Part shown: piece after piece, positions 36,546 through 62,492 of the stretch
How positions within the stretch are numbered: position 1 is the first letter of the stretch
Layout of the letters: each line of letters begins with the position of its first letter
DNA from: Amphiscolops sp. MND2022
Lineage: Eukaryota
NCBI GenBank assembly: GCA_964187785.1
Contig: OZ076409.1
Location: 16,060,001-16,124,000 of the forward strand
DNA: 64,000 nucleotides
Reading direction: 5' to 3'
Program-made: the position numbers and the translations under genes
The notes under the pieces: model-generated
The model's input: only the letters and a program-made list of their open reading frames with translations
Database searches by the model: none
What the model was told of the DNA's origin: nothing

Positions 36546-39039
36546 TTCTCCAAAGGTATTAGTTTCGATTAATTTTTTAAGAGACCTCCTATGTTTGATT
36601 GAAAAAATGTCGCTTATTTGCGGAAATTTGGTGAACAGTTCGTCTTTGTCGCATAAAATGGTTTTGTTTAGTATTCTTCCGTTTTTTTATTATTCTTTCA
36701 GTTCCTTGTGCAAATTTTGTCTTCCTCTGATTTGCTATTTGGTAATTTCACCTTCCTCATGATGTAGACACAATGTACTGGGTAAGACGGGCCTAACCCT
36801 GCCTGCAGAGTACGAGTGTCTACTGGGTTCTTAGTATTGGTTGACCTCTCTTGAAGTTACAGCTCTACTATTCAAGAATATGGTTGAGGTTAACCCTAGA
36901 CTCCAGTAGACACTCAAAATCTCTCGCACAAGTACTGATTTGATTCGATTCAAATCTTTACTTTTTTTCCCTCCTCGATTTAAATACCTCTACACAGACT
37001 ATATGGCGGTATCACAGTAAATTATGCACTTTCTCTACGTGGTATGGAAATACTGCAATATTGTTTTAATCAATTGTACTTAAAATTAACCAACTTACTC
37101 CCTCATTTTTTTTTACTTTTGCTGACCTCTCTTTTGTCTTGGAAATAGTTTTTCTTGCTATCGTTTTTTTTTGCTTCTGAAAGGGTATAAAAGCGGAAAT
37201 AATATTGTGGCCCGGAGGGGCCTATTTTATCAAATATTGAACCATTCCAAATATTTTTGAAGTAATTGAAGAAATTTGAAGAAATATTTTTGGATTGCTG
37301 TGTAGAGTCGAATTACGTAGGAACGAAAAGTTTGTACAGTGTAGGGGATCGAATTGTAACGTGATTTTGTCTAGGATTGGAAAACGGGAAGTTTGCTTTA
37401 TGATACACCGTACATATAGCGCATTAAATGCAGCAGCGAAGCGAAGCTGGCCAACTTGCCACTACTTGACCAGCACAGGTTTTGACATAGGCCAACCTGG
37501 AGGGGCACAAAGCGCAAGGAAGGAGGAAGGCCGAGTTATACAACCAATTTTGGTTTCTAAATTTTTATTGAAATTATCAATTTCGATATTCTGAAAATCG
37601 ATCCTAAAGCCGAGACAGCTGTTATCCAATTTTACGGGACATTTACAGAATAAGCTGTTTCTCAAGCACCCTCGTGAATAAAATTTCTTCGGAAGTTTCA
37701 GGGAAAACAGTCGTTAGATAGCCACTAGCACCAGAGGCCAAAACCAAAAAGGGAAGAAGTGCAAATGATTACGCAAATGACACCCCTAGACCACATACTT
37801 AAGCCGGCAGAGCTGGCTAAGCACTCAAAAAACCGTCAAAATACACGTTGAACACTTTGGAAAGCCGCCTCTATCGGCTTTTGCTTTTTTTCTCCGACGT
37901 GCTGCAGGATTGAAAGACAAGTTGGTGCGCAGTATGTTGAGAAACTTCGCTGAACTGGAAGAAAATCTGAAATCTCTAATGCCCAACTATTTTTCCAGCA
38001 AACTCAGTTGTTCTTTTTTCCGATTCTCTTCATTTGTTTGCACTAAGACTACCTGTGACTTCACGCCTAGTGGTAGTCCGAAAATACGTAGTTCGTCTCT
38101 CGTCAGAGTTTTCAGCCCCAGAAAAATTTTTGAAACATGGAAGAAATCGTTAGGTTGCATTATGGTGTCATCGCATTTTGAGGGTTCGATTTTGAGGCCA
38201 CGTTTTATCTGCCTATATGGGGGGTTTGGGGGTTGGGGTATTTTACCACGGTTCCGGTTTTGTCACTTGGAAGTCCATTGTCGAGGTAAGATACAGCCGA
38301 GGTTAACCTCCTATTTGTCAGGGCATTTGGTTCGAAGTTCAATATTTTTGATCCGTCAAATTTGCTCGACAAAGAGAAGTCTCCGGGTGAACCAACCGGT
38401 AACGTTTGTCGGTGGTAACGTTGGGGACAAACTTTTCAATAGTTTGATTAAGGTCTGGTTGATTTCAGGGTGAATTGTCACTTGGCTTGAAGTCATTTGG
38501 GTTAAACACATTTATTTGGCTTTTGTGCATTTGGTCATTTGGCTCTATTTGTTCATGCCAAACGTCTTGGGTAAGAGGTCACTTGGCGTAATACCATTTG
38601 GCTGAAAATCACTATGTTGAAAAAGCATGCCAGACTTCGTCGAAATTATTTTTATTATTCTTATGTAGTCAGCTTCATTGACGTACCCTTGTGTCCTTAC
38701 TCAGTGTCCTAAATCCGGGAACGAAGCGAAGGGGAACGACGTGCTATATGGTCATATCTCAAAAGTGCTACTTGGCGAAGACAGCGAGGCGACCTAGCAA
38801 TACAACAATTATACTGAACATTTCAAAACTTTTTTTAGTTTCTCGAACAATTCGCTAAAAATTAAATTCAGTTTTCATCTTCATTAGGTTGTTTATAGAC
38901 ATTGCTTGAGTTAGAATGAACTTGGTCTAGCGTTGGGGTCATTTGGTTTAAAAACATTGAGCCACATGACGCGAAAATAAAATTAATTCAAACGAAATCA
39001 AAGTTTTAGTAACAATTAGGCTCGATAGGAAAAGTTTCA

Positions 39040-42000
39040 AAAACATCTGAGGCCTATTATGCATCCCCGTAGTACTAGCCACTTCGGTACCTCGCCTTTC
39101 GCGAGTCAAAAATAAATTTTTCAAAGTAATATTTTAAAATTCGGTTCGAAATTTGAGTTTAAAAAAAATAAGTTAAATTTAGTCTTACAATGCGTTTTTT
39201 GAACTCGATTTTCCAGGCAGCGATGCAATGATCTACTGAAATCTTTTCACGGCAAAGTTTTTGTCGAAAGCTGAGTCTAACCACTTCCCGGAAGTGTGCA
39301 CAAACTGCGTTCTAAGGAATAAGATTGAAACCCACTTCTGTAACTATGATCTATAGAACTGAGATCTAAATGTCATTTTTCGTGACTAAGATCTATTGAA
39401 TGCCAGCTCCCGATTAGTAACTCCAAAAAGTCGTCCAAAAATTTTCTTGATCGAAATTTTGAAAAATATTTTTGCTGTTTGGCGACCAATTGTCCAATCT
39501 GTTTTGTCAAGATTTTGGTTGTCGAAAAGTCGTACAAATATGTGTAAAAAGCGTTTTGTCGACCAATTGTTCAAATGAGTTATCTTGCCAATTGTGTGAA
39601 ATTTGTGTATAAAGCTTCTTGGGAATAGCGTCTAAAATCGGGCGAATTTCAAGCCACATAAGTTCTAAAACTGTAAAGTGATTTAAAGCATAAAACGTGT
39701 CTAGGATATGTCCCCCTTTTCCTCTAGTGCCCTACTGCCCTTGGAGCTGCCAATAGTATCATCTTGCCAAGCGAGGTCGAACAGGAGCAAAGACAGTTGG
39801 AACTGAGATCACAAAGCAATCGTAGTTGGAGCTGGTCTTTGCGACGGTGAGGGCGAGCGTGCATACGCTTTATATGACCCCATATCAGGTGGCGGCTGAA
39901 CTACTTTTCCGGGAAAGTAGTGAAAGTATCTTGAACGCTTTTAGACGTAATTCTTTTTTAGACATTATTCCTTAGACGTTATTCCTGTTCTCCGTGTTTT
40001 GTTTTGGTTTTTAGCTTTTAGACGACGTTTCGACGAGAAAGACGTTTCGGCGACAGTGTTGTTTCCGAAACGTCCGTTGCCATATATTCGCCGAAACGTC
40101 CGGAATCCATTGGCAATCATCGGCAATTATTCATTGGCTAAAAGACCAATGAATAAATAATTGGTCTATAAACTTTCAGAACCAATTGGGTGCCCCTGAC
40201 TCTCATCCTTAAATTCTAAAATGACTTTATCCAATTATCAATGCTTTTTTATGCATTTTCATACGTGAATTTTCCCGTAAATTGAGGATTTTATAACAAA
40301 TTGCTGGTAGATTTTATTGTTGCCGCCGAATAAAGTTTAGTACACACTCGGTACGGTGCATCTCCAGACTTCATCCCACTCAGTGGAGTCTACCACCTTT
40401 GATGCCCTTTCAGGTTTTGCAATCCGTCATTTCAAATATGAAAATGTTGGGAACTTCAACTACCGTGCGAAAAACATCTGAGGCCTATTATGCATCCCCG
40501 TAGTACTAGTGACTTCGGTACCTCGCCTTTCGCGAGTCAAAAATAAATTTTTTAAAGTATCAATTTAAATGTCAGTTCGAAATTTGAGTTTCAAAAAAGT
40601 AAGTTAAATTTAGTCTTACAATGCGTTTTTTGAACTCGATTTTCCAGGCAGCGATGCAATGATCTACTGAAATCTTCTCACGGCAAAGTTTTTGTCGAAA
40701 GCTGAGTCTAACCACTTCCCGGAAGTGTGCACAAACTGCGTTCTAAGGAATAGGATTGAAACCCACTTCTGTAACTATGATCTATAGAACTGAGATCTAA
40801 ATGTCATTTTTCGTGACTAAGATCTATTGAATGCTAGCTCCCGAATAGTAACTCCAAAAAGTCGTTCAAAATTTTTTTGATCGAAAGTTTGAAAAATATT
40901 TTTGCTGTTTGGCGACCAGTTGTCCAATCTGTTTCGTAAAGATAATGGTTGTCGAACAGTCGTACAAATATGTGTAAAAAGCGTTTTGTCGACCAATTGT
41001 CGAAATGAGTTATCTTGCCAATTGTGTGAAATTTGTGTATAAAGCTTGTTGGGAAAAGCGTCTAAAATCGGGCGAATTTCAAGCCACATAAGTTCTAAAA
41101 CTGTAAAGTGATCTAAAGCATAAAACGTGTCTAGGATATGTCCCCTTTTTCCTCTAGTGCCCTACTGCCCTTGGAGCTGCCAATAGTATCATCTTGCCAA
41201 GCGAGGTCGAACAGGAGCAAAGACCTAGCTGGAACTGAGATCACGAAGCAATCGTAGTTGGAGCTGGTCTTTGCGACGGTGAGGGCGAGCGTGCACACAC
41301 CGTATATGACCGATTCTATTTATGACCATATATGCAATTATAAAGATACCGTATTATATGACCAAATCTGGTGGCGGAAAGTAATGAAAGTATCTTGAAC
41401 GCTTTCAGACGTAATTTTTTTTGTAAGACATTATTCTTTAGACGGTACTCCTGTTCCTCGTGTTTTGTTTTGGTTTTTAGCTTTTAGAGGACGTTTCGAC
41501 GACAGTGTTGTTTCCGAAAAGTCCGCCGCCATATTCTCGCCGAAACGTCCGGAATCCAATGGCAATAATTGGCAATTGTTCATTGGCTAAGAGAACAATG
41601 ATTAAATAATCGGTCTATGAACTTTCAGAACCAATTGTAAGTGCCAAATAACTATTGGGTGCCACTTACTCTCAGCCCTAAATCCTAATATGACTTTATC
41701 CAACTATCAATGCTTTTTATGAATTTTCATACGTAAAAATTCCCGTAAATTGAGGATTTTATAACAAATTGCTCGTAGATTCAACTGTTTGCTACCCATG
41801 AAAGTATCGTAGACACTCGGTACGGTGCATCTCCAGACTTCATCCCACCACCTTTGATGCCCTTTCAGGTTTTGCAATCCGCCATTTCAAATATGAAATT
41901 GGGTTGGGATTTTTCAAATACCGTGAGAAAAACATCTGAGGCCTGTTATTCATCCCCGTATTACTAGCCACTTCGGTACCTCGCCTCTCGCGAGTCGAAA

Positions 42001-44376
42001 GTATGTTTTTTAAAGTATTAATTTAAAACCCGGTTCAAAATTTGAGTTTAAAAATTTAAATTAAATTTAGTCTTACAATGCGTTCTTGGAATTCGATTTT
42101 CCAGGCAGCGATGCAATGATCTATTGAAATCGTCTCACAGCAAAGTTTTTGCCGAAAGCTGAGTCTAACCACTTCCCGGAAGTGAGCACAAACTGCTTTC
42201 TAAGGAATAAGATTAAACGCACTTCTGCAACTATGATTTATAGAACTAAGATCTAAATGTCTATTTTCGTAACTAAGATCTATAGAATGCCAGCTCCCGA
42301 ATAGTAACTCCAAAAAGTCGTCAAAAAAATTCTTGATCGAAATTTTGAAAAATTTTTTTGCTGTTTGGCGACCAGTTGTTCAATCTGTTTTGTCAAGATA
42401 TTGGTTGTCGAACAGTCGTACAAATATGTGTAAAAATCGTTTTGTCGACCAATTGTCCAAATGAGTTATCTTGCCAATTGTGTGAAATTTGTGTATAAAG
42501 TTTCTTGAGAATAGCCTCCAAAATCGGGCAAGTTTTAAACCACATAAGTTCTAAAACTGTAAAGTGATTTAGAGCATAAAACGTGTCTAGGATATGTCCC
42601 CATTTCCTCTAGTGCCCTGCTGCCCTTGGAGCCGCCAATAGTCCCATCTTGCCAAGCGAGGTCGAACAGGAGCAAAGACCTAGTTGGAACTGAGATCACA
42701 AAGCAATCGAAGTTGGAGCTGGTCTTTGCGACGGTGAGGGCGTGCGTGCATACGCCTTATATGGCCCCATTTCAAGTGGCGGAGAGTATTGAAAGTATCT
42801 TGATCGCTTTTAGACGTCATCCCTTTTTTAGAAGTTTTTTTAGACGTAATTCCTGTTCCTCGTAATTCGTTTTGGTTTTTAGCTTTTAGAGGGCGTTTCG
42901 GAGAGAAAGACGTTTCGGCGACAGTGTTGTTTCCGAAACGTCCGCCGCCATCTTGTCGCAGGAACGTCCAGACTCCATTGGCAATGAATGGCAATTAATC
43001 ATTGGCTAAGAGACAAATGACTGAATCTTCGGTCTATGAAAGTTCAGAGCCAATTCTAAAGGCCAAATAACTATTGGGTGCCCCTGACTCTCATCTCTAA
43101 ATCCTAATAGGACTTTATCCAATAATCAATGCTTTTTATGAATTTTCATACGTAAAATTTCCCGCAAATTGAGGATTTTATAACAAATTGCTCGTTAATT
43201 CTATTGATTGCCGCCGATGAAAGTTTAAAACACACTTCGGTACGGTGCATTTCCAGGCTGCAACCCACTCAGTGGAGTCTACCATTTTTGATGCCCTTTC
43301 AGGTTTTGCAATTCGCTATTTCAATTATGAAAATGCGTTGGGAACTTTCAACTACCGTGCGAAAAACATCTAAGGCCTGTTATCTATCCCCGTAGTACTA
43401 GCCAGTTCGGTACCGCGCCTTTCGGGTGTCGAAAATATGTTTTTAAAACAATTAATTTGAAAATCGGTTCAAAATTTCAGTTTTAAAAAAAATAAGTTAA
43501 ATTTAGTCCTACAATGCATTTCTTGAACTCAATTTTCCAGGCAGCGATGCAATGATCTACTGAAATCTTCTCACGGTAAAGTTTTTGCCGAAAGCGGAGT
43601 ATAACCACTTCCCGGAAGTGAGCACAAACTGCGTTCTAGGGAATAAGATTGAAACGCACTTTTATAACTATGATCTTTAGAACTGAGATCTAAATGTCAT
43701 TTTTAGTAACTAAGATGCCAGCTCTCGAAAAGTAACTCCAAAAAGTCGACCAAAAATTTTCTTGATCGAAAATTTGAAAATTGTTTTTGCTGTTTGGCGA
43801 CCAGTTGTCCAATCTGTTCTGCTGTCAAGATATTGGTTGTCGAACAGTCGTACAAATATGAGTATAAAGCGTTTTGTCGACCAATTGTCCAAATGAGTTA
43901 TCTTGCCAATTGTGTGAAATTTGTGTATAAAGCTTCTTGGGAAGAGCGACCAAAATCGGGCAAATTTCAAGCCACTTAATTTCTAAAACTGTTAAGTGAT
44001 TTAAAGCATAAAACGTGTCGAGGATATGTACCCATTTCTTCTAGTGCCCTGCTGCCCTTGGAGCCGCCAATAGTCCCATCTTGCCGAGCGAGGTCAAAGA
44101 GGAGGAAATACATAGCTGGAACTGAGATCGCGAAGCAATCGTAGTTGGAGCTGGTCTTTGCGAAGGTGAGGGCGAGCGAGCATACACCGTATATGACCAA
44201 TTTTTATTATGACCATATATACAGTTATAAAAATACCGTATTATGTGACCATATCTGGTGGCGGAAAGTAATGAAAGTATCTTGAACGCTTTTAGACGTC
44301 ATTCCTTTTTTTACACATTATTCCCTGGATGTTATTCTTGTTCCCCGTGTTTTGTTTTGAATTTTAGCTTTTAGAC
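39040..44376. repeat. ~1.43-1.46-kb tandem repeat, ~3.7 copies
   Basis: Unit start aaaacatct(g/a)aggcct at ~39040, 40471, 41929 and 43363; the last copy is cut at ~44376. Confidence 0.93.
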
Positions 44377-46215: not shown

Positions 46216-46668
46216 TCATTGAAAGAGAGAGTTTTGCGATGGAGGATGAGTTTGGTGTTGGATCGGGTCATAAAGTTCTAGTTTTTGAGTATACCCGAAA
46301 TCTTTCAGCATATTATTAAAAGCATCTATAGCTTCTTGGATAGCAGTACGAAAGTACTGATCCTTTGAAGTAAAGGACGAATTGAGGACGAAAACAACAT
46401 TAGATGCCGTTTCACAAATGGCAATTTTAGGTCCTTGAAGATGGATTCGCGAGTATTGCTCGAAAGTGGTTTTCTTTTTCTTTATTTGCGTGACATTGTA
46501 GAGTACTTTTAAGAAAGCGATGAGACATTTGGGCGTAATTTTGTTTTTGTGAATCTCAAGCGAGAGTTTGAAGGCCATGGTGTGAAATATGGCGGCTTTA
46601 AGACTATGCACTTTCGAAAATTCTGAAGTCATGGTTAGAATGTCGTTTGTTTCAGCATTTGGAGCCAT
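46216..46668 (-). CDS. ORF5: orphan 150-aa accessory protein
   Basis: ATG-initiated, normal-complexity ORF on the element's sense strand downstream of ORF4; no family recognised. Confidence 0.5.
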   Translation of the reverse strand: MAPNAETNDILTMTSEFSKVHSLKAAIFHTMAFKLSLEIHKNKITPKCLIAFLKVLYNVTQIKKKKTTFEQYSRIHLQGPKIAICETASNVVFVLNSSFTSKDQYFRTAIQEAIDAFNNMLKDFGYTQKLELYDPIQHQTHPPSQNSLFQ

Positions 46669-47085
46669 GATGACGAGAGTTTGAAGAATGCGAAGAAAGA
46701 GAAGTTGGGATGTTCTGAAAGAATTTGGATGAAGGAGGAGGAAGAATGGATGTTTCTAAAACAAAGGAAGTGTAAGAAGAATGACAATATCGAGTCAAAG
46801 ATGTACAACAAAATTTGGAGCTGGAATGTATCATATTTAGTGTTGTGCTAGATTGTCTTGTATGTCTTGTATTGTAGTGTTTTTAGTAGAAATAGTTAGT
46901 TTTTTGACATGTACTGTATGAAAAATTAGTGTACTTAAAAAACAGTCCTGAGATTTCATTCAAAAGCAAGAATTTACTTTAAAGAAGTAGGTAAAAATGA
47001 AAATACCTTGTAGAATGTGCCACAGATGTACCATAGAATGTACCAGAGAAGAAAAATTAAAACTTTATAATACCTGTAGAGGAGT

Positions 47086-48380
47086 TTAATGAAGATTAGT
47101 TGAGTTAAAAAGAGTAGTTATAGTTTCCAAAGCAGATTGAATTGCTTGGGATGATTGAGTGATGCGTTGAGAGTCTAAATCGAGTGTCTGAAGTAGTTTG
47201 TGTGTTCTGTCGTAGCAGTGTAGTATATGTGTAAGTGTTGTGATAGATGTTTCAGAGGAGTTTCGTTTATAGGGTTCAAGTAAATTTGTTATGTCGCGAA
47301 GTGTTCGGTTGTTTAATACAGAGGAAAGTTTGTCAGGAGTGTTTTTGATAGGAGAAGTGTATGATTTATGTTCAGTTTTTTGTTCGGCTTGTACCATGAA
47401 AGAGATAGTTTTGGCAGAGATAAAGAGAAGTTCGTTGTAGGATTATGTTTGTTTGTAGAGTGCTGTATAGTACGTTCTATCTTTATCATCAAGTGGAGAA
47501 GATACTAGATGTTTAATAACAGTAAGAGGTTTGGCAATTTGAGTAGGAATGTTGCAAGGCAACAAAGCATCATCGTAATGTATAAGATATTCTTGAGGTA
47601 CAATAAGTGGACGAGAAGTATTGTTATATGGAAGCAAACAGAAGTATTGTTTTATAGGGTCATAGTTTCGAAGGTAGCCTGTTATACAAGAGTGGTCTAG
47701 AGTGTACATATTTGTCATTGTGAACGGTGATGTATATTTGTAATTGACAAAAATGTGATTTTGTGGTTTCGTGTATTGTAGGAATTTAGTATATGTTTGA
47801 TGATGAGTAGCTTTTTGTGCTATAGAGAGGAAAGATGGATCAGATTCATCTGTTTTGAGATCGTAGATAGATGGTCGCCATTATCGAGCCAATATTGGTA
47901 TGGACCCATTATTTTGGAAGCAATGGATGTAAAGAAGTCTTGATTTTTGTCATACAAGCGAAATGAATAGTCTGTAGGATGCATGTATAGAGAAGTTAGT
48001 TGTGCTTTAAGGACGAAATCGTCTGTAGAAAGAATTGAGATCAAATTATCATCTCGATTCGTGCAAAGTGAAATTTTCGAAGGTATTGAAGGAGGATATA
48101 TTAGCGATGAAAGAAAGATTGGATCTTTCATAATTTCATATCGTTTTTTTGGAGGAGGTGGTGTCGATTGTGTGTGATCAGTATCAGCTTGTGAAGGAGT
48201 AGGTTTTGAATTTTCATGTTCAACTTTTGTATGTTCCATTGGTTCAAGAAAAAATGGAGGTGTTTGTTCAGAAGTCTCAATATAGAGAACAGGAGAATTA
48301 TTCGAAAGAGGTCTTGTTAAAAGATCTGTTGGGGTTGCTTGTTCAAGCTGTGTTTGTAGGTCAATTTGTGCTTGTGTCAT
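47086..48380 (-). pseudogene. ORF4: orphan accessory gene (~430 codons) broken by a frameshift (~47880) and a TAA (47443-47445)
   Basis: ORFs 47443-47718 and 47086-47397 share a frame that is open from ~47880 and overlaps the end of ORF 47820-48380; same codon bias as pol and env. Confidence 0.65.
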
Positions 48381-48642
48381 TGTTTTAAAACATCAACAGT
48401 CACAGTGTTATCTATTCCAAGAGGCCTTAGCACTTTAAAGTTAACGTACTATAAATTACACTAACGAGTGGATTTATCAACTTTGGTTGAAGAGTTTTTG
48501 AAGACTGTTATTCTTAGAGATGTATTATCGGGTTGAGGAAGATGAACTTCTGCAAGAGTTTCGTGTGGTGAAGGAGTAGCAATTGTGAAGAAATAGTAGG
48601 CAAGTGTTCTGGAAGAGAGTTACAGAAAAACTGAGAGAGAGT

Positions 48643-51351
48643 TCAAGAAGATGGAGGAGGAAAAAGATAGTTTATTCGCGAATAGATTTTAATTGGTGTA
48701 TCCGTAGTAGAGTTGACAGGATTGTTAATTAAAGTGTCATGTTGAGTAGTTAGATTGTCATTCGAGTGAAAGTTTTTATGAGTATAAATAGGAAGTGGAG
48801 GATGTTGAACAGGAGAGAAAGGAAGTGGAGTCGTTTTATGGTGAGAATTGTGGTGTCGTTTCGGAAAGAAGTTAAATTTAGGAAATTGAATTTTGTTAGG
48901 TCGTTTAGTATAGAAAGGTGGAGGGGAAGTAACATCTGTAGAATGGTTAATTAAATTTGGAGAAGTGTCAATAAAGTTATCTAAGGATTTGGATTTCGAA
49001 AGTGGACTTTTGGGTTTTTTGTTTTGAGTCTCATGGAGGTCACTGACCATTCTTGCTGTAAGAACATTAAAAAAACCATGTGCAATAGAACTAAGTAAAG
49101 TAATATTATTTTTAAGATTATATTTAATGGATATTGTTTTGTAAAGTTTAACAATAAGTGTAAGAGTAGCTTGTACAAAACGAAATGTAGAAAAGTATAT
49201 GCCACATTGTGTAAGAATGTAACAAAGGTATCCAAAAAGTGCAATAAAAGCATCTGAAAACCATGTAGGTGTAAGAAGAGGAGTTAAATTCAAGAGTTTA
49301 ACATGGAGTCCTATGCGTAATGAATTGTAAGGATTACCTGAGTCTTGAGGGGAATCTGCATCGTAATTTGGAGTATTAGATGAAATGAATGAATAACTAA
49401 GAGCTTTGCCTAATAGTTGAAGTGTAGAGTCAGAATGTTTAGAAAATAAGATACGGTTCCAAAATTGATCAAGTTCTGCATTTGAATATATACCAGCATC
49501 TTGGGCTGTAAAAGTATTGGGACGTATTGTAGTTTTGATTTGTGAAGGTGTAAACATTAGTGGAGGTTTACGTTTAATAGGTTCAGGTCCAAGAATGTAA
49601 AAGTCTTGGTCATCTGAGTCAGGATCTAATTCAATAATGTTACGTGGATTATTATCACATGTAATTGGTGTAGCATAATCATAAGTTTGTCTTGTAATTG
49701 GGTCAACGTACATTAAGGTGTCTTTGAAGTGTATAGGTATACGGTCAAAGCATCTATCTGCTTTGTATAAAGGAGATAAAAAATGAGGACAGTCATAAAG
49801 CCAGGCGGTTGAGCCTTCAACGTATAAGAAATTACTTCTATTACCGTTTAAAAGGAAACCAGCAAGTTGAGGGTTTTGTACTGACATTGCGAGTATTGTA
49901 AGGAGTTGGTTTCGTTCTAATTCACATATTGTATGGAGAGTATTTAGTTCTTGTACGGTCATTGATCGGAAAACATGGTTAATAGTGTAGTCTACTTTGG
50001 TGTTTATATGTGCGTCATAATCAATGGTAGCAAAATTGTTGGAGACATTTAATGCAGGGAATACAAATTTATTATTTGAAGTGTCCAATACTATTTTACC
50101 GGAAATATATTCATCAATCATAGAATGAGGATTGGGTTGTCCTGTATGCATATTGAAACCATCGGTGTAGGTAACAAAAAGGTCTGAATATTGTGTAGAA
50201 TAGAGAGGGTCTGGTTTACCACAAAAGGTTTGTGCTGTAGGGAAGACTTCAAATCTTGAAAGACTCGGATTATTTGGATGTTGTGTATGAGGAGCATGAA
50301 CATAAGGATGTTCTGTACCTTTGATACCAGAAGTGGCTTTAGATTTTATTGAGTGTGGTGAATGTACAAAGGAGTCTGTTTCAATCCAATATCTATCTTC
50401 AATTTTAGTCATACGTCCAATAAAGTCCTGTAAGGTAAAAATTAGGCAATAATCGTCATTGAACCAAACAAGAGTGAAAGGAGTTTTTGTTGTGGGTTTA
50501 CAGAAACCATCTGCAAAGTAGCAGGGTAATGTATGTCCATCTATGATCATGTCGTTAGATGTGTCATCATATGTAAGTTCTACTTCAGAAATTTCTAGTC
50601 GCCAACTAACTAAGTTGACTTCGAATTGGTGATGAGCAGGGCAGTTGTGATAAGGGTTTCGAGTAGGGTCATATATCCAGTTTTTATCAGCAGGCATAAA
50701 TGTAAATGTACCTGTATACATTTTGTTCAGTTGATATACAGTAAAAGGGGTTTGGTATTGTTCTAAACGTTCTTGAAAATAATGGTCTTCTAGGAGTGTA
50801 AAAGTTTTATTATAATGATGGTTATTTAGTATTTTATCATTTGTACCATTTAAATGTCGTATAATGTTTTTACATTCTACTGGATCAAGAGTAACAGGGA
50901 GTGGTAATGTATTATGATTCCATACGGTTCTATCGACACGACGATATTTTACTGAACCTTGAAAGCATATTTTCCTTTCTTTCTTTGCATAAGCAACACA
51001 TTTGAAAGCTTTGATGCGTTTAGCTTTTGCGCGTACATATACACGGGCTTTAACACTTGCATGTTTAATGTCAGAAGGAGCTTCAGTGCATTGTTTTACA
51101 TTAAGTAGATTAAATTGTCTCAAATTGTGTTGTTTTGCACAGTCATAATGAGAAACCATGAGATTTGTAATATTGGGATCGTCTGATGGAAGATAGTTTT
51201 CAGTGTCAGAAGGTGTTATGGGTATAGAGAAGGTGATGTTAAAGAAATGTAAATAGAGTATTAGATTTGTTATGTAAAAGATTGTGTAGGGTTTAAAAGG
51301 ATGTGGTATATTTAAGACCGGAATATGGGTTACAGAAGACAATTTTGCCAT
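48643..51351 (-). CDS. env: Envelope glycoprotein, class III fusogen-like (herpesvirus gB / chuvirus G-like), 902 aa
   Basis: N-terminal signal-like hydrophobic stretch; Cys-rich ectodomain (HYDC...C...AFKC...ICFQG...EC; CELER...NPQLAG...EGSTAWLYDC...CFDRIPI...DPITR...PITC); N-glycosylation sequons; C-terminal TM region and long tail. Confidence 0.8.
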   Translation of the reverse strand: MAKLSSVTHIPVLNIPHPFKPYTIFYITNLILYLHFFNITFSIPITPSDTENYLPSDDPNITNLMVSHYDCAKQHNLRQFNLLNVKQCTEAPSDIKHASVKARVYVRAKAKRIKAFKCVAYAKKERKICFQGSVKYRRVDRTVWNHNTLPLPVTLDPVECKNIIRHLNGTNDKILNNHHYNKTFTLLEDHYFQERLEQYQTPFTVYQLNKMYTGTFTFMPADKNWIYDPTRNPYHNCPAHHQFEVNLVSWRLEISEVELTYDDTSNDMIIDGHTLPCYFADGFCKPTTKTPFTLVWFNDDYCLIFTLQDFIGRMTKIEDRYWIETDSFVHSPHSIKSKATSGIKGTEHPYVHAPHTQHPNNPSLSRFEVFPTAQTFCGKPDPLYSTQYSDLFVTYTDGFNMHTGQPNPHSMIDEYISGKIVLDTSNNKFVFPALNVSNNFATIDYDAHINTKVDYTINHVFRSMTVQELNTLHTICELERNQLLTILAMSVQNPQLAGFLLNGNRSNFLYVEGSTAWLYDCPHFLSPLYKADRCFDRIPIHFKDTLMYVDPITRQTYDYATPITCDNNPRNIIELDPDSDDQDFYILGPEPIKRKPPLMFTPSQIKTTIRPNTFTAQDAGIYSNAELDQFWNRILFSKHSDSTLQLLGKALSYSFISSNTPNYDADSPQDSGNPYNSLRIGLHVKLLNLTPLLTPTWFSDAFIALFGYLCYILTQCGIYFSTFRFVQATLTLIVKLYKTISIKYNLKNNITLLSSIAHGFFNVLTARMVSDLHETQNKKPKSPLSKSKSLDNFIDTSPNLINHSTDVTSPPPFYTKRPNKIQFPKFNFFPKRHHNSHHKTTPLPFSPVQHPPLPIYTHKNFHSNDNLTTQHDTLINNPVNSTTDTPIKIYSRINYLFPPPSS

Positions 51352-52531
51352 ATGTGATAATGGGTATATTCAGATCGCGTTCAAATTCAATATGTACGAC
51401 TTCAAAAGGAGCAGGAGAAATTTTGTGTTCTATTTTAGAAACGTGAAATATTGGGTGTGGATTTAATCCTTGAAATTTGACTTTGACTTCAAATTTAAGT
51501 TCTAGATTTGGTGTCTGAAGACGTTTTAGTTCTGTTTCCTTGCGTTTGTGAGATAAGAGATCGTTGTTATTAATGAAACGTTCTGCAAGAATTGGAAATC
51601 GAGGATGGTTTTGTGGGTCGTAGATGGTTATACCATCGACTCTAAGTGGATAATCAGCAAAATTTGGAGTTGGGGGTCTAGAATGTTCTGCAGTATAGTA
51701 TTCAGGTAGTCTAATATGTGCAGGAACAGGAGTAGGAATTACTACTTGTGAAAAAAGGTCTCCTGATAAAAATGCAGTCTGGGCGTTAGATGAGAGTAAT
51801 GAAGCGGTTTCAATGCCAGAAGTAAAATACGGAGATTGAAAGAGTTCTGAAGATGGTGTGTCAGAGGATAACGGTTGAGAGTGTTGTCGTACAAGTCGTA
51901 ATGCAGAATAGCTAGAGAGAGCGGAAAAATTGAGTGTTGAAGTGTCTGTACTAAGTCTACGTGAGGGGAGATCGCGAAGATTGTATCGATGTTTAGGTAC
52001 AAAAAGTGAACTTGTGTCTTGTGATGGAGCGTAGTCTGAAGTATTGTCTAGGAGATCTGAGAGTGATGTAGAAGGTTTTCGAAGGGGTTTTAATGGGGGA
52101 TAGAGTTTTGAAGAAGTAGTACTGAGTTCTGATGGTAATTTCAATGAAGGTAATTTTGTATATTCAGTATCAGGGATTTGTACAAGATTAAGTTGAGGTT
52201 GCAGTCTAACAGTTTTTATAGCTGTAGGATGTTTGTAAGTTACGTATTGTTCAACACTTTCAGGATTTGGTATGTGTATAATAGGAGTGTTAATAGGAGT
52301 TTGTTGAGTACGAGTGTTTATAGGAATTTCAGTTATAGGTGGTCTATGAAGGAGTGATGAAGAGGCGGTTTCAGAGACGTATGATCTTGGTCTTTTAGAA
52401 GGAGTAGTAGGAGTTACATTACTAGAGTTTGTAGTGTTTGATACTAAAGATTCGGGTGTAGAAGGAAGACTTGGAGCTGATGGAGATATATCAGAGGAAG
52501 AATCCAGGATTGTTGAAATGTTTTCAACAGG
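51293..52531 (-). CDS. ORF2: ~412-codon Ser/Pro/Thr-rich open frame without any ATG, carrying PSAP and LYPPL motifs
   Basis: The ORF-track 283-aa ORF (TTG start) stays open upstream to a TAA at 52532-52534 by manual translation; it overlaps the env start. Confidence 0.7.
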   Translation of the reverse strand, partial: PVENISTILDSSSDISPSAPSLPSTPESLVSNTTNSSNVTPTTPSKRPRSYVSETASSSLLHRPPITEIPINTRTQQTPINTPIIHIPNPESVEQYVTYKHPTAIKTVRLQPQLNLVQIPDTEYTKLPSLKLPSELSTTSSKLYPPLKPLRKPSTSLSDLLDNTSDYAPSQDTSSLFVPKHRYNLRDLPSRRLSTDTSTLNFSALSSYSALRLVRQHSQPLSSDTPSSELFQSPYFTSGIETASLLSSNAQTAFLSGDLFSQVVIPTPVPAHIRLPEYYTAEHSRPPTPNFADYPLRVDGITIYDPQNHPRFPILAERFINNNDLLSHKRKETELKRLQTPNLELKFEVKVKFQGLNPHPIFHVSKIEHKISPAPFEVVHIEFERDLNIPIITYGKIVFCNPYSGLKYTTSF

Positions 52532-52617
52532 TTATCTTTGAGATAACTTGTTATTGGTTATATTTCATTTAACTGGAGTGACTAGTTTTGAGTGAGCCAG
52601 CAGATAGAATGATGGAA

Positions 52618-55600
52618 TTACAGTTGGGAAGGTGTAATAAAAAGTCTATAATCTAATTTGGGTTGTTGTCGTAGTTTATAAGTGGTTTTTGTGGTTCTGT
52701 CAATTAGAGGAGGAAGTGAAGTTGTTTGGTTGTTAGAAGAGTGTCTTGATCTGTCACTAGAGACATTAGTGTGAGGGGTATTAATTATATGTCTATATAA
52801 GGAGTTGTCATTGGTTGAGGAAGTTAAAGACTTGTCATTGGATGTTATAGATGGTGTATTTTGATTGAACGTAATAAATGATGGTGGTGTCACAAATGTT
52901 TGAGAATCTTCTTCAGACAAGGATTCGTCTGAGTTAAACGGAGAAGAATCACTGTTTGCATATCTGGTTGTTTGTGGAATTTGGATTTGAGTTGTGTCTG
53001 AAAAGCGCATAAAATTACGCAAATGTGGATATAAGAGTGGTTCTTTAGGGTAATATGGAATTAAATGATTTCTATGAACGTGTACTGTAGAGCCATCTTG
53101 TGCAAGTAGTTCATATGTAACATCTGATAATCTATCAAGAATTTTGTATGGTCCAATCCGAAGGGGTTTGAGTTTGTCAGAAAAATGAACATGTGTAAAA
53201 TTACGTTTTAAAACAAAGGTACCAATAGGAAGGGGATTACCTTCGTGGTAAGTTTTTGTAATGTATGCGTGTGAATTAATTTTTCGTAGGGTGTTTTCGT
53301 ATACTGTGGAATAAATTTGTAACATAGCAGTTTCTACAGCGAGAAACCATTGGGGAATGGGTTTTGAAAGTGTTTTATAGAAGAATGGGTTTAAATCTGA
53401 TTTATCATAATGAGAGTGTTCAGGAAGTTGAGAACAATAGCGTGAAATACATGTTTTGGAGGTATCGCGGTTAAGGTTTAAATCAAATGTGAGGGGTATT
53501 CTGGGTCTAGTGTGGAAAACAATTTCGTGAGGTGAAACATTGAGTTCTGAAAGTGGTTGTGAATTATGTCCATAAGCGTACATATGGACTTGAAATGCCC
53601 AATCTTTAGGTGTGTCATGTAGGAACATTCGAAGGTGAGTACCAAGATTTCTGTTTTCTACTTCAACAAGGCCATTTGTCCAAGGAGAATAAGCCGTTCT
53701 AGGAGAATGACGAATTCCCATAAGTGTACAAAGGTGTGCCATTTCTTTATTAACATATTCTGATCCACGATCAGTGACAAGGTATATGGGTGGTCCAAAT
53801 TTAATAATCCAATGGTGTAGGAGAGTTTTGATAGCAGTCTTTGCGTTGTTTGATTTGATGGGTACTGTAACAACAAAGTGACTAAAAGCGTCAATTATTA
53901 CGTGTATATAAGATTTGTTGTGAGAAGGAGGATTAATTGGTCCTTTAGTTTCCATTGAAATTCGGTAGTTGAAAGATGGAGCATGTTCTGAAAATGATTG
54001 TGTAGGAGCAGTTTGAATTTTCATATTGAAGTGTTTGTTACGTTGACATTCAATACAGTCATGTATGAAAATGGAAAGCCATTTTTCAAGGAATGGAATG
54101 TAGTAATATTGTTTGAATGTATTATATGTAATTTTCATACCAGTGTGAGAGTGTTCATTGAGTTTGTTAAAGACAGTTTTGAACATGCGAAAAGGAAGAC
54201 ATATACGAATAGTGTCTTGTACAAAATTTGGAGTAGAAGATTGGTTTGTAACAGTAGGATTTGTAATATATAGGCTAATAAGGTTTGTGGATTCGTCAAT
54301 GAAAAGTTGTGAGAATCTTTTGTAGTAGACATGTAAAAATGGAGTACCAGTGATAAGAGGTCTTATAAATTCGGGTTTTTCATTGTTTAATAACCAAGAA
54401 TAAACAGTTCTAAGAACCGGATCTTGGAATTGTTGTTGTTGAAGAGTTTTTATGTCTAATGAATAATCATCTGGAAGAAAAAAACCTTGAAAATAGTTTT
54501 TGTACTTGAAAAATGATGTATCATAGAAAGGTATAATGTGTTGACAATGTGTGAGAGAAGGTAAATTTGGTTGTACATTGATTGCAGAAACAGATTTTTG
54601 TGAGGTAATATGAGTTAATTGGTTAAGAGTAGAAAAATTTTCTGTTTGTAATGTTGTGTCTTGTAGGAAGGAAGAGTCAAATTTTGGAATTCTGGTGTAT
54701 ATATGATCTTCGTCATCGCTTGTAACATCAGTATCATTAAGCAAGAGAGATTGTTGATGAAGGGTTTTATTGTTCTTTTTTGTAGGTGTCTTAAATTTGG
54801 TTTGAAAAGGAGTTACAGATTTGAATGAGAAAGATTGTAACGGTTTTACAACAATGTCATTTCCTTTGTCATTGATGCGAATAGAGAATTGGTCTGTACC
54901 ATAATCAGCGAGAATTGGGTGAGAGTCATGTTTTTGATGAGGTAAAATTTCTTCATGTTTAAATAGGTAATGTACAGGTTTGAGAGTGTTGTCTTGTAAT
55001 AGTGCAAAATCAATTTGTGGTGGAAGTTGTTTGTGTTTTAATTGGTTTAATTGTAATTCAGCTTTTGTGAAGGAGCGACTCAACATATAGGCAACAGAGA
55101 GATTTTTTCCAGGGGTGTGAATTATCTTGAGTTTTGAAAATTTTGTCAATTGCATTTGAGCTCTGTAGAAACGAGGGCTGAGATTACCTTTCTTTGTAAA
55201 ACAATGTAATAAAGGTTTGTGATCAGTGAAAATGTGTATTGGATGGGGAGAACCTATGATAAGAAATTCATAGATTTGAAGTGCGTGTACTATACCAAGG
55301 AGTTCTCTATCAAGTGTGGAGAGTTTTTGTTCTTGTGGGTTAAGTATACTAGAGTTGTACGATATGACTTTCATTTTGTTTTGTTCACTTAACTGGAATA
55401 AGACAGCGCCTAATCCAATAAGGGAAGCGTCAACTGTAATGAAAAATGGATGTTTTGTATTTGGTATTGTTAATTCTGTTTCAGAAGTGAGAGACATTTT
55501 AAGTTTTTGGAAGAGACTTTCGTGTTCATCTGTCCATTTCCAAGGAGTGTTCTCATTTAAAAGATCGTAAAATGGTTTGAGGTTAATATGTAATTTTTCA

Positions 55601-58600
55601 ATAAATTTGGTGTAAAAATTGAGTGCGCCAATGAAACTCATTAGGGCAACTTTGCCAGTTGGAGAAGGGATTTTATGAATAGCTGCAATTTTCGAAAGAA
55701 TTGGTTTAATTGTATTGTAACCAATTTCATGTCCAAGAAATTTGACTTTAAGAAGCATGAAAAAGGATTTTTCAGGAGCTAGTTTAAGATTGTGTTTTGT
55801 ACTAATAAGGTGTAGTTGTTCTATGAGTTGGAACATGTGTTCTTTAGAGTCTGATAAAAGTAATATATCGTCTATATAGACAAGAGCGAAACCTTGTTCT
55901 ATGAGGGTTTAAAAGAAGGTAGACATTTGTTTTGTAAAGAAGTTTGGAAGTCCTTTGAGACCATAAAAGCCTCGGATGAAAGCAAAGAGTTTATCTCCGG
56001 AGGAGAAACTAGTAAGTTTTATAGTGTCTTCGTCAAGAGGTGTATGTGCATAGGCATACATAAGGTCAATAGCGGATTTGTACTTTTTGTTTGCGCGTGC
56101 TAATTGTGGAGCAAGAGGTTCAATAGTCCAAGATTCATCAGATTGTTCTGTATTGGAATTAAGGTGTCGAGCGTCTAATACACATTTTATTGTATCTCCC
56201 TTGGGAATTATAATAAGAGGGTTTAAATAAGTTGTGCCATAAACGGGTTTGTCTTGAGGGGAAGAACCAATTTGTTTGATAATGTTATATTTTTCGAGTT
56301 CTTTGAGAAGTACGTTAAGTTTGTCTCGGTAGTGAATAGGGACTTTGGAAGGACGTTGTGTTATAAGTTGAGCATTTGGTTTAAGTCGTATACGAAAGGG
56401 TGTTGAAATTTTTCCAACATAGTTTTTATGAGTTGCATAACATGTTTTATATTTGAGTAACATATTGCAAAGAGTAATGTATTCTGTATCTGTAAGGTCA
56501 GAAAATTGGAAGTTAAATTTATTAATGAATTTTAAATTTTCAGAAGTGTATGGTAAGGAAGGAAAAATGCGTTTTTCAGAAGTGTGAGAAGTAGGTTGAA
56601 CGTTTTATAAAGGAGAAGTTTGATTTGGAATGTCATCATTTGTCATATAAATTTGATGTAGAGAGAATTGAGGAGGGGGGGTTGTAGGATCATCATATTG
56701 TACAATATAGTTAGTTTGTGGAAGTGGTTCTGTAATATCAGGATGATAAGTATGAGTAACATTATGTATTAAAGTATTAATGTCGTTAACTTGGAAGAAT
56801 TTAGGTTTTTCATTAGTAATTGGAACTTCAATGTATCCAATATGTCCTGTAGGTAGTGTTGCAACATGTTTCGAAGTGTTCTGAATAATAGTTGCACAAA
56901 TGTCTGGTTTGTCATCAGTAAATACTTCAATAAAGTTAAAATTTGTACGAAATTTGGTAGCAAAATAGGTATGAGGTACTGAAGGGAAGAAGTGGTTTTG
57001 TGGTGTAGTTGTAAAATGAAGATTATGATAATTTTTTATTGGAAAGTGTGCGATTTTTGAAGACTTGGGTTTTAGACGTATTTGAGTTTTTGAGTTTATT
57101 CTATAGATGTAAGAGAAATATGGATAATCTTTGGATAGGAGTGTTGTGAACTTTGTATGGTTTGGGTGTGTTTTTGATTGATATTTAAATTCGAGTGTAA
57201 AGTCTTGTATGTTTATGTTTTGTATATTGTCTTCAAAGAATGGTGTTCCAAGGATGTTGTATTTGATATCAGCTACTGCAAAAGGTACTGAAAAGTAACG
57301 GGAGTTTTCATCAATAGTGGTGTTCGAAATTATATTGGCATAATGTAAAATAGGAACTTCAGTTTGGTTTGCAACAGTTAATGTTTTGGAATTTCGAGTT
57401 GGTCCAACATCAGAGGTGTGATTTGATCTGATATCTAGAAGTTTTGTGAGAGTTATATATGTTGGGTAATTTAGTACTGAAATGGAAGCACCGCTATCTA
57501 GAAGAAATGCAATTTCTAATCTAGATGGGTTATCTCTTTGTACTATAATTGATGGTGTATGTACATATAGTGTATAAAACCAACTTGTAGGTGTGACAGC
57601 ATTTGCCATTGCTGTTGGATGGTACATGTGTACTTCAAATTTTATAGGGTCAGTTTGGTCTTGTTGTTGTATCATATTAATTTTATTTTTGGAATTTGAA
57701 TGTGAGCGAGATCTAGAAAATCTAGAGTCTCTTGGTCTTGAAGGTGGTCTATATGAATTTGTGTATTTTGTGAATTTGTTGTCTCTTGAATAGGAGCGTG
57801 ATCTGTATCTAGGACGAGAGTTTTGTCGATATGGGGATCTATAAGAAGATCTGTAAGGAGAACGGTAAGATCGAGAATCACGTTTGTATGTATCATATCT
57901 TGATCTAGAGTAGTGTGGAGGAGTGGTACTTTTGTCATAACGAAATCTATCTCTATCTCGAGATGTAGAACGGTATCGGTTTTGTGGATAATTTCTGTTA
58001 TAAGAGTTGTCTCGTGAGGTACTTCGATTTCGGTATCGATTATCATATTGTTTTGTTCTATCATTGGAAGGAGAACGGAAGTACTGTACAAATGATTTTT
58101 GTGGAGATTTTGATCGAGCATATGCTTCTCGTTTATCTTCATCATCTCGTTGTTTTTTGAAACAAGCAGAAATGGAGTGATTTGTTCTATGGCAGTATGA
58201 GCAGTATTTTTTATAGGCAGGTTTATTTTTGTTATTTGGGTCTTTAGGTTGTGTATACATAAGTTGTTCTTGAGATGAATGATCAAGAGTTTGAGTGTTC
58301 AATTGTTTTGTAATATTATTAATTTCAAGTGCAAGATCGTGTGTTCTGATTTTGTCGTTTGCAATATCTTCGGCGTCAACAAGTTTTACTAATGTATGAA
58401 AAGGGATTGAAGGTTCTAGAACAGTGAAAGTGTGTTTTACTTGTCTTTTATTTGCAAAATCTTTGAGATTCTTTGGAAGTCCTTTTGTGAAGATTTCATT
58501 ACATTTAAGGTTAATAGTGGATGCATTCTCATTACACCAGCCTTTTTCAACCAGTTGTTGAACTTTGAGTGCAAAGTGACGTACTGTTTCATTATCTTTT

Positions 58601-60816
58601 TTAGGTAAATTAAGGGCTTCAACTTGAGCATAGTAGGCGTTCTTTTGTGATGAGAATTGTTTTTTGAAAGCTTGTTCGAAAGCGTGCCAATCATGTTTAT
58701 AGGTGTCGTTTAAACAAATGTACCAGCTGAGTGCTGTACCTGTTAAAGAGCATTGTATGAAAGCCATGCGACGGGCGTGCCAAAATTTATATTCATGTTC
58801 CAATGTAGGTTGTAAACCTAGGGAAAATGTGGCACGTGCTTCAATATGTTGTAAATATTCTTCAGGTGTATAATTGTGATCGAGTCCATCAAAAGGTTTA
58901 ATGGGTTCTGATATAGAGGTAGAAGAATTAATATATGTTGGATGTGACATAGGGTTAGGAGTTATAGTAGTTGGTGGTGTTGTGTTATACGTAGGAATGT
59001 TTGAAATGTTAGTTAAAGAGGTAGTTGAAGTGTTTTGGAAGTGAGGGTTTGTTCTAATTGTTGTTGAAGGAGGATTTGATATATGAAATTGAGAAGTTTG
59101 TAATGTAGGGTTAATTGTATTAGATGTATGTTGAGAAGAGAGAGTATTTAATTGGTTTGGAGTGTTGTAATTTATCTGGGCTTGTTGTGGAGGATTTGGA
59201 TTAGTACTGGTGAGACTGTAAGATAATGGATTAGTTAATATAGGTTGTAATGGAGGTCGAGAAAGATGTCTGGCAGTTGTATAATTAGAGGATGGGTTGG
59301 AATGAATTGTGTTAATATTTAAGGTAGGTTGTGTAGTTTGTACTGGATTAGTTTGAGCTGGAGTATAAGTTGAAGTTTGTATTTCAGAAGATGATGGTGG
59401 AGTTGGTGTGTGAAAATGTACTGTATTAGTATTCTGTGCAATATAGTGTGTATTTGATGAGCTTGGTTGAGGAGAGTTATGGGTGTTGATCTGAGTTGAG
59501 AATTGAGGTGGATCAGGAGGTGGATTATAATTTCGGGGAGATAATATTTGTGTCTGAGAGGGTTGTGTAATATTAGTATTAGAAGTAGATATCATGGAGG
59601 TATTGTCTTGGTTGATATTTGAAGTATTATCTTGACTTTGGTTTGTAATGTCGTTTTGTGTGATATTGTGGGTAGGAATTATTATACGATTTGAATCATC
59701 AGTTATTGTAAGACTTTGTGTATTTTGTACTGTTTCTTCAGAGAATTCTGATGTATTGTGAATTGTATTGGATTCAGAAGGATTTGGTTGTTGTATATCA
59801 GGAGCTTGTAATTGTGGTGAGTATAATAGTTGTTCTTGAGGAGAATCAGGATTGTGAAAAATATTCGCAAAAGCTTCTTGTTCTGAAGATTCTTGTTCTG
59901 ATTGTTCTGATTGTTGTCTTGTATATAAAGGTTCAACACTAGAGGTTTGTTCTTCAGGAGTTGTTTCATGAGAAGTATCAGATGTAGTAAAAGGTCTGTT
60001 ATCTGATGTTTCAGAATGTTCAAGTATAAAGGTAGAATCTAAATTTATTTGTTCAAGATGTGTAACGTTTAATGAAGTGAGATCTCTATAATGTAAATGT
60101 TTGTTTTCGTTTTGTATGATGTAGGGTAAGAGTTCTGTATGGGTCAATATATGAGGGAAGTTAACGTAGGCTTGTTGATCTTTTTGTTCCCAAATTAGTT
60201 GATAGTTAAAGCTGAGAAGCTTAAATAAGAATTGTGTAAAAATTTTGACTTGTGGTATTGTATCATCCGTAAGGATAATGTTGTTAAAGAATCTGTATTG
60301 AAAATGTTTGATTTGTACTATATCTCGTTGTAACCAATAATGAGGATTATTATGTCGTTGTACTTTTGTGTCAAGATCTGGGACTTCGAAATATTCAGAT
60401 CTGTGTTTTAGTTCTTGTAAATGAGAAGGACGATAAAGTGGTGTGTCTTGGTTTTCATTGAATTCGATGAGTTTTTGCATATATGTGTTAAAAACATCTT
60501 GTATAGAAAGTGTAATATTTTTTGGATGTATAGTTCTATGAAATGTTCCAGAGTTTATTCCTTTGACTGGGTTAAAAATAACTTGAAAAGGGGTTTGTGA
60601 TGGTGTTATATCAAGTGTTTTATATCGAATATAATATAGATAAGAATCAGAATGTTCTCGTACTAATGGAATAGTATGTAATATATAAGGTTCTGTTTCA
60701 AATGGTAATGGGTTTGTGTACTGAAAGATAATGTTATTTAGGAAAGGTGTTACATCTTGTATAAGAGATCGATTTTGTCTTTTTTCAGTAGTGAATGTAA
60801 ATGGAGTGGGAATCAT
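52618..60816 (-). pseudogene. Single-frame gag-pro-pol (~2730 codons) with two in-frame TAA codons (56605-56607, 55909-55911)
   Basis: The three ORF-track ORFs share one frame. Capsid-like PFDG...WY...FKKQF; CCHC knuckle CSYCHRTNHSISAC (58162-58203); protease LLDSGAS (~57490); RT VLDARHLN and YIDD (55867-55878); RNase H TVDAS/DRELL/FTDHKPL; IN HSHTG...CIEC, TDRGSE, NGLVE and a GPY module. The order PR-RT-RH-IN is gypsy-type. Confidence 0.95.
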
Positions 60817-61060
60817 TATAAGGTATTAAGTTTGGTTAGTACAATAAGATTGCCATAACGGATAGATGTATCGGAAAAGAAGATATTTTGTATTGAATTT
60901 TGAATTATATGGTAAAATTTGATCTATAAATACAACTTGTAAGAAAATAGTAAGTGCAATACTTATAAAAAGAAGAAATGGGTTTTGTATATATTGAATA
61001 AGTATATGGAAGGTGTGGTAGATACTAAGTAGTCCAAAAAGGGGTGTTGGCGCCAGTCAT

Positions 61061-62057: not shown

Positions 62058-62142
62058 CTAGAAGAAGAAGACGACTCGCTGGTGGACAACTGAGAAGATT
62101 GCCCAAGAAGAACAAGTGTCTGGATCTTGGAGTTGCTGATTT

Positions 62143-62458: not shown

Positions 62459-62492
62459 ACTTTGGAACTAAACTCAATCGACAATAGAAGAG

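Follow-up and report, generated by a model that had tools for sequence, protein, structure and literature searches.

We analysed a window of 64,000 nucleotides (nt) from Amphiscolops sp. MND2022 (contig OZ076409.1, positions 16,060,001 to 16,124,000; assembly GCA_964187785.1) that harbors an env-carrying Ty3/gypsy-like retroelement on its minus strand. Between pol and env of this element lies an open reading frame (ORF), here named ORF2, which is a real, conserved, stand-alone protein-coding gene without any Met codon. In the best overall explanation, to which we assign a probability of about 0.5, ORF2 is an accessory gene that would start at a CUG, share an mRNA with env and encode a predicted adaptor to the endosomal sorting complexes required for transport (ESCRT) and to chromatin. 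All positions below are those of the window. Published systems are cited by PubMed Central (PMC) accession, and statements on them refer to parts of each text.

51293..52531, minus strand: ORF2, 412 open codons from stop to stop, no Met
51296..51694, minus strand: C-terminal domain of ORF2, residues 280-412, two helices followed by five strands in the AlphaFold2 model
48643..51351, minus strand: env, Monjiviricetes_fusion (PF24664), E 3.5e-23

ORF2, a conserved gene without AUG between pol and env

The 412 Met-less codons noticed in a preliminary description of the window were confirmed. A stop-free run of this length has a probability of about 4e-9 at the stop-triplet frequency of the element, and the G content by codon position (0.19/0.08/0.02) agrees with that of gag, pol and env. 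With the Met rate seen in the other frames, the complete lack of Met would have a probability of about 0.007. A total of 248 relatives were found at E<=0.001 by word-index search; among the 120 matches listed, all of them unnamed ENA records, identity to ORF2 ranges from 60 to 97%. A profile built from residues 130-412 gave 233 matches at E<=0.001, with C-terminal identity reaching down to 33% among the 150 listed. Conservation begins at codon 8-9, and the deep relatives form four lineages. The earlier proposal of a separate protein is supported, and the protein is conserved.

Neither ORF2 nor its family members (0/65) match Pfam, and ORF2 has no match in the PDB sequence search or above 0.88 in the Atlas search. 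DNA of the relatives was found neither in viral contigs, for which ORF2 and env were queried, nor in metagenome contigs. Derivation of ORF2 by duplication of the Gag N-terminus or the pol tail was rejected, no likeness to either being detectable. Judged by these comparisons ORF2 appears to represent an undescribed protein family, while extra ORFs in long terminal repeat (LTR) elements are already known.

The full-length AlphaFold2 model of ORF2 has a mean predicted local distance difference test (pLDDT) score of 44, with most of residues 8-304 below 50, and the N-terminal ~280 residues are predicted to be disordered. Residues 280-412, modelled with a 65-row alignment, reach a mean pLDDT of 76.8. 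The disordered N-terminus and folded C-terminus of ~130 amino acids (aa) suggested earlier were therefore reproduced. The accompanying term "matrix-like" gained no structural support from the fold searches: the best Z was 4.2 for the full model, with no relative named; the C-terminal model gave a best VIA Z of 3.9 (ApaG, root-mean-square deviation 3.2, 71 residues aligned) and nothing at E<=0.001 in Foldseek against viral and PDB structures. This lack of a match does not make the fold new.

Env follows pol and possesses a fusion ectodomain and a C-terminal anchor (hydrophobic peak at residue 702), as expected of a gB-type errantivirus env; it has no PDB sequence match. The env AUG (51351) falls in the last 59 nt of ORF2, and the env relatives share this start Met.

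Short motifs in ORF2 and in the Env tail

52472..52483, minus strand: PSAP, conserved as P[TS]AP in 32/40 close relatives covering the site
52091..52105, minus strand: LYPPL, predicted ALIX site, with LYPKL/LYPRL in distant lineages
51974..51991, minus strand: HRYNLR, residues 181-186, resembling the foamy-virus Gag chromatin-binding core YNLR
48910..48921, minus strand: PPFY in the env tail, with PPxY kept in the tails of relatives

PSAP at 52472-52483, LYPPL at 52091-52105, PPFY at 48910-48921 and PPHY at 57910-57921 in Gag, all pointed out in the preliminary description, are present at these positions; their assignment to host partners follows PMC7995964. When ORF2 was shuffled 20,000 times, 4.2% of the sequences contained P[TS]AP, 5.6% LYPx(1-3)L and 0.26% both; 10% had two or more of three loosely defined motif classes. 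Because of these frequencies the motifs in one copy alone are suggestive only. PSAP and LYPPL sit where the model has low confidence, in its N-terminal part (mean pLDDT 33-52 by block), so that canonical late motifs lie in a region predicted to be exposed and disordered, as expected of a late-domain protein.

Among the close relatives covering the site, YPxL is found in 82 of 99, but only 56 of 99 have the strict form LYPxL, because IYPPL is common. A deep alignment of 24 hand-picked rows of long, diverse relatives has YPxL in 16 of the 19 rows with letters at that column and P[TS]AP in 8/12 rows, including PTAP in P0340. LYPKL or LYPRL occurs in P0222, P0253, P0272 and P0278, which are 33-41% identical to ORF2; the chance of this is 0.3-0.8% for each, and the four proteins fall in three supported lineages. 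LYPxL is conserved beyond chance with a varying x, and PSAP only in part: it is absent in P0242 and P0272 and is probably confined to the nearer subfamilies. In P0010, P0016, P0017, P0019 and P0069, a 10-residue duplication repeats SKLYP just before LYPPL.

The best-kept motif of ORF2 is H-x-YNLR, which the preliminary description had missed. YNLR is exact in 17 of 22 rows of the deep alignment, and Y-x-L-[RK] is present in 20 of 22. Tyr and Arg are the invariant residues of YxLR in foamy-type chromatin-binding sequences. YNLR is the chromatin-binding core of foamy-virus Gag (PMC12125541, PMC6021111), and in the motif GGYNLRP of prototype foamy virus (PFV) Y537 and R540 bind the nucleosome acidic patch (PMC12125541); the ORF2 tetrapeptide is identical to this PFV core. 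The disordered tail of pol (52621-52690, minus strand) ends in YKLR, a second motif of YxLR type. Pol also has PPIY in the integrase core and LYPHL, neither of which is in the preliminary description.

A total of 67 env relatives were examined, 23 of which have a tail of at least 120 residues; PPxY is present in 21 of these 23, with F, K, N, P, H or E as the middle residue x. The late motifs are thus conserved beyond chance in the case of LYPxL and the env-tail PPxY, and only in part in the case of PSAP, which is missing from the distant lineage that reaches the N-terminus. The distant envs P0188-P0191 (27-30% identity) have short tails with LYP/FYP motifs, and in two of them (P0189 and P0190, ~30% identity) the tail finishes with (L/F)YP and PTAP. 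In this class of env, late motifs may often be carried by the glycoprotein tail. Neither PTAP nor YPxL was found in the gag-protease frame, which has only the one PPHY, so the predicted ESCRT-recruiting motifs of the element would reside mainly outside Gag.

Several observations weigh against a budding role. Close relatives by themselves are hardly informative, since PSAP takes only the 32nd and YPPL the 36th place among 259 windows of four residues. The available N-terminal regions of the four distant proteins, of which only P0272 appears N-terminally complete, have no PSAP. YPxL is absent from P0340, P0070 and P0258, and the fourth deep lineage has none in the available fragments. The search profile contained both proline motifs, which is a mild ascertainment bias. 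ORF2 also has no transmembrane stretch (maximal 19-residue hydropathy 1.02) and no evident lipid anchor.

According to the favoured explanation the ORF2 product would be an adaptor in the virion. LYPxL, together with PSAP in some subfamilies, would recruit ESCRT beside the PPxY of the Env tail; sequence conservation makes recruitment of ALIX by ORF2 probable, and recruitment of TSG101 in the PSAP-bearing subfamilies a more tentative prediction. YNLR would tether the incoming core to nucleosomes after entry, like p12 of murine leukemia virus (MLV) within Gag. We give nucleosome binding by ORF2 slightly less than an even chance, and packaging of ORF2 in particles an even one.

Start of ORF2 and alternative explanations

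52505..52507, minus strand: CUG as codon 9, A at -3, G at +4; putative non-AUG start
52551..52568, minus strand: upstream ORF of 5 codons (MKYNQ) in the pol-ORF2 spacer, in another frame
52414..52419, minus strand: off-frame AUG with a stop directly after it, between the CUG and the env AUG
51628..51636, minus strand: off-frame AUG with a two-codon ORF, between the CUG and the env AUG
52477..52507, minus strand: pyrimidine-rich tract ending in CAG, putative splice acceptor; G at 52477 inside PSAP, first AG within ORF2

It had been anticipated that a consensus ATG among the relatives would speak against noncanonical expression; none exists, and 83 starts assigned by gene callers spread over 33 positions. 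Most of these starts lie where the window copy has ATA, GTA, TTA, GTT, TTG or CTG, and the residues upstream of I-L-D are hypervariable among relatives. The CUG at 52507, which like the env AUG inside ORF2 had escaped the preliminary description, is the sole near-cognate codon in strong context (purine at -3, G at +4) that occurs in frame with ORF2 from 52300 to 52800. CTG is rare in the element, accounting for 3 of 311 Leu codons in gag/RT/pol/env (RT, reverse transcriptase). The residue before the codon-9 Leu is I, N or T, which gives A at -3, in 38 of 40 rows. Gene callers place the start at the CUG position in 5 of 83 relatives, and all three members of the distant P0272 cluster begin with MSDSSS at the place aligned with it.

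The path from the CUG to the env AUG contains 2 AUGs in 1156 nt, against 18.4 expected, and both open ORFs of at most 2 codons, compared with 8 of 131 elsewhere. Among NAy codons followed by G, T is the last base in 2 of 9, versus 111 of 152 (Fisher p=0.003). Distant ORF2 relatives have 8 Met in 5,347 residues versus 107 in 5,817 for env, although the former count is an underestimate by up to one per protein, since callers make the first ATG the start. The column aligned to the env AUG is AUG-compatible in 45 of 62 rows, the top of 131 columns and partly determined by the query. A naive Poisson P of 2e-6 for the AUG depletion was set aside as overstated after composition controls. Such an AUG-poor path suggests that ORF2 and env share a bicistronic mRNA on which env is reached by leaky scanning, with moderate support because the low-complexity tract of Gag is also AUG-poor.

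The Gag tract (3 AUGs in 1051 nt, P=0.048) is one of several results that count against this picture, together with the bias in the Met counts of the relatives. The depletion has P=0.025 by synonymous resampling and 0.034 by codon-order shuffle, and P=0.067 within ORF2. No stable hairpin lies 10-18 nt past the CUG. A non-AUG start with an AUG-poor downstream path and leaky scanning has precedents (PMC3542737). In the proposed mechanism, a subgenomic ORF2-env mRNA would be made, the weak CUG at 52507 would start ORF2, and Env would be produced from the same mRNA by leaky scanning past this CUG. We rate a CUG start and a shared mRNA, taken together, as somewhat better than an even bet.

The strongest competitor, though unlikely, is that ORF2 is a 3' exon whose AUG is supplied by an upstream exon, with the CAG inside PSAP as acceptor, so that PSAP would not be translated as such. 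Exons of this kind are known from Drosophila iERV (errantivirus) env, which takes its start from upstream exons (PMC12992720). A tract of 74% pyrimidine precedes the first AG in ORF2, and the conserved codons 9-18 double as this tract; relatives without PSAP (ASVS, STVS) stay YAG-compatible, and in 58 of 64 pattern matches, some of them off-target, position 19 keeps a residue whose codon begins with G. All this weighs against the CUG start. However, splicing leaves the rare CTG kept at the start of the tract unexplained, and the change of PSAP to PTAP in P0340 preserves the peptide motif. No consensus donor was found near the 5' end, which is a weak test, and acceptors upstream of 52532 cannot join in frame because of the stop there. 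LYPxL, YNLR and the shared mRNA with env would stand even if ORF2 were spliced in this way.

Less likely still, ORF2 is real but acts outside budding, for instance as a chromatin tether or a regulator of RNA export, and the proline motifs are secondary. YNLR is present in all four deep lineages and LYPxL in three, pol ends in the similar YKLR, ORF2 is without a membrane anchor, and Cer1 offers the accessory RNA-export protein CERV (PMC10309623). On the other side, LYP-x-L is fixed with a varying x amid a poorly aligned region, the env tails keep PPxY, and those of the distant P0189 and P0190 end in (L/F)YP plus PTAP. Such a role is also compatible with the favoured explanation, since MLV p12 does both (PMC6021111).

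It is quite improbable that ORF2 normally begins with an AUG and that this copy has lost it. In favour, the copy is decayed (gag-pol is interrupted by two in-frame stops), the called start of many relatives lies six codons ahead of I-L-D, and the start codon of P0272 could be AUG. However, hypervariable residues fill the five positions behind that called start, P0007 has Leu at the start position itself, and called starts scatter over 33 positions. Recoding, which had also been suggested, is very improbable. Although ORF2 begins only 87 nt past pol, two stops in different frames, that of pol (52618) and one in the ORF2 frame (52532-52534), separate the genes, and no fused relative of 722-2060 residues was matched among 1006 candidates, which is weak evidence by itself. 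That ORF2 is non-coding and the motifs are due to chance is hardly credible: each motif alone appears in 4-6% of shuffles, but the stop-free length, the codon-position bias, the relatives down to 33% identity and the confidently predicted domain all contradict it.

The element and related systems

56605..60816, minus strand: gag-protease frame with Retrotrans_gag, one CCHC knuckle and PPHY, ending at the in-frame stop 56605-56607
52618..56604, minus strand: pol (RT, RNase H, integrase), in the same frame as gag, with an in-frame stop at 55909-55911
46216..48380, minus strand: further open frames 3' of env, probably additional accessory genes, some broken

The host element is G-poor and extends on the minus strand from ~61050 down to ~45000. 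The known distribution of such elements suggests an invertebrate animal as host (PMC13524379). A primer-binding-site-like sequence, gag-protease, RT-RNase H-integrase, ORF2, env and more open frames follow each other in this order. The first of these, TGGCGCCAAC at 61046..61055 (minus strand), is a putative primer-binding site. The gag frame matches PF03732 in Pfam at E 3.5e-08 and thus has a capsid-like domain with a zinc knuckle, and the protease motif DSG is visible in its translation. The best PDB match of pol is Ty3 Gag-Pol (E 3.7e-39). The order protease-RT-RNase H-integrase, by itself also common to BEL/Pao, together with the Ty3-like sequence identifies a Ty3/gypsy (Metaviridae) pol. 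The copy in the window is decayed, as two in-frame stops interrupt the shared gag-pol frame.

No LTR pair was found in this copy by self-BLAST, and the best local alignment scored 41 compared with up to 40 in 30 shuffles; this concerns the present copy only, which may be truncated. The element is an env-carrying Ty3/gypsy-like retroelement, and we call it gypsy-like instead of a formal Ty3/gypsy member because of this missing pair. Troyka was considered since LTRs are missing, and was dropped since Troyka has LTRs (PMC12440569). Searches for tRNA and with Rfam gave no match.

Several other parts of the element were noted. Frames past env (46216-48392, minus strand) show a coding-like G bias, and neither Pfam nor Atlas gave a confident match for them. 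At 48380 (minus strand) an AUG in strong context opens a 186-aa frame, another open frame starts at 46668 (minus strand), and the adjoining frames 47443-47880 and 47086-47442 (minus strand) may be pieces of one broken gene. The first ~300 residues of the gag frame (59900-60816, minus strand) have no Pfam match, and a long Q/S/T/N-rich, AUG-poor tract precedes its capsid domain. A further ~200 residues past the protease motif (56608-57567, minus strand) are also without a Pfam match; in other gypsy elements the place after the protease is taken by a dUTPase-like domain (PMC6431247), which was not confirmed here.

Outside the element, a broken hAT-like transposase (DUF659, with a weak hAT dimerisation match) lies at 8357-9923 (minus strand). 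Three to four copies of a multi-kilobase unit, 96-99% identical and separated by arrays of ~104-bp repeats, occupy 16235-36735. Four tandem copies of a ~1.43-kb unit at 39039-44376 abut the 3' side of the element. An array of 24-bp units at 62077-62532, open in several frames, is located ~1 kb upstream of the putative primer-binding site.

The gB-type-env Ty3/gypsy "errantiviruses" of Chary and Hayashi (PMC13524379) share the gag-pol-env order, the Ty3-like pol and the chuvirus-like fusion env, whereas the present element has a 412-codon gene between pol and env and, in this copy, no LTR pair. The first filter of that survey accepted pol-env gaps of at most 1000 nt, and later steps searched further downstream in some taxa (PMC13524379). 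With 1267 nt from the pol stop to the env AUG, the present layout would be missed by the first filter. The text parts of PMC13524379 and a term search of its 7 supplements gave no extra pol-env ORF, although its figures and sequence tables could hold related elements.

MLV p12 and foamy Gag (PMC6021111, PMC12125541) resemble ORF2 in combining a late domain and a chromatin-binding sequence in a disordered region; in contrast, their motifs are parts of Gag, and ORF2 stands as a gene by itself downstream of pol and has a folded domain of its own. Homology in sequence between ORF2 and MLV p12 or foamy Gag was not shown. Vpu of HIV-1 (type 1 of the human immunodeficiency virus) is a small membrane protein, and ORF2 is without a transmembrane stretch. 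The HIV-1 vpu/env mRNA likewise carries an accessory ORF that runs into the start of env, and ribosomes arrive at env by leaky scanning or shunting (PMC5220186); unlike Vpu, which has an AUG in weak context, ORF2 has none, and its mRNA is a prediction. In rice tungro bacilliform virus a near-cognate start is followed, as here, by ~0.9-1.2 kb nearly free of AUG before the next gene, an arrangement shown there by experiment and proposed here, for proteins unrelated to ORF2 (PMC3542737). NS3 of bluetongue virus also bears late motifs outside the capsid/matrix polyprotein, although the virus is unrelated and the motifs are PSAP and PPxY instead of LYPxL (PMC7995964).

Extra ORFs in LTR elements, some of them between pol and env, are described in PMC6431247, PMC5408684 and PMC11952523, and none of those described resembles ORF2. 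The sORF2/FAST-like proteins of the MDG1 group (PMC11952523) and the rotifer ORF3s (PMC5408684) are also accessory ORFs of gypsy elements. The former are transmembrane fusogens of 63-107 aa, a size and type that ORF2 with 412 aa does not share, and the latter are env, GDSL, DEDDy or transmembrane proteins, none of which ORF2 matches. The literature searched, in which subscription papers, Repbase reports and bioRxiv supplements are thinly covered, held no description of an accessory ORF with late domains located between the pol and env genes of a gypsy element. A bolder picture, which we consider unlikely for now, is an invertebrate lineage of enveloped retroelements with a new-fold fourth structural gene, a CUG-initiated p12/matrix-like adaptor to which late-domain and nucleosome-tethering roles would have moved from Gag, and whose ratio to Env co-translation would fix.

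By what route env-carrying gypsy elements other than those of Drosophila exit and enter cells is called an open question in PMC13524379. The conserved ALIX- and NEDD4-type motifs in ORF2 and the Env tail make it a testable claim that these elements bud through ESCRT as vertebrate retroviruses do, with the late motifs on a separate gene. Gene callers and element surveys readily overlook an ORF that has no AUG and makes the pol-env gap wider, and the class may therefore be under-counted. If true, a foamy-like YNLR in an accessory protein of a gypsy element would point to convergent or ancient nucleosome tethering.

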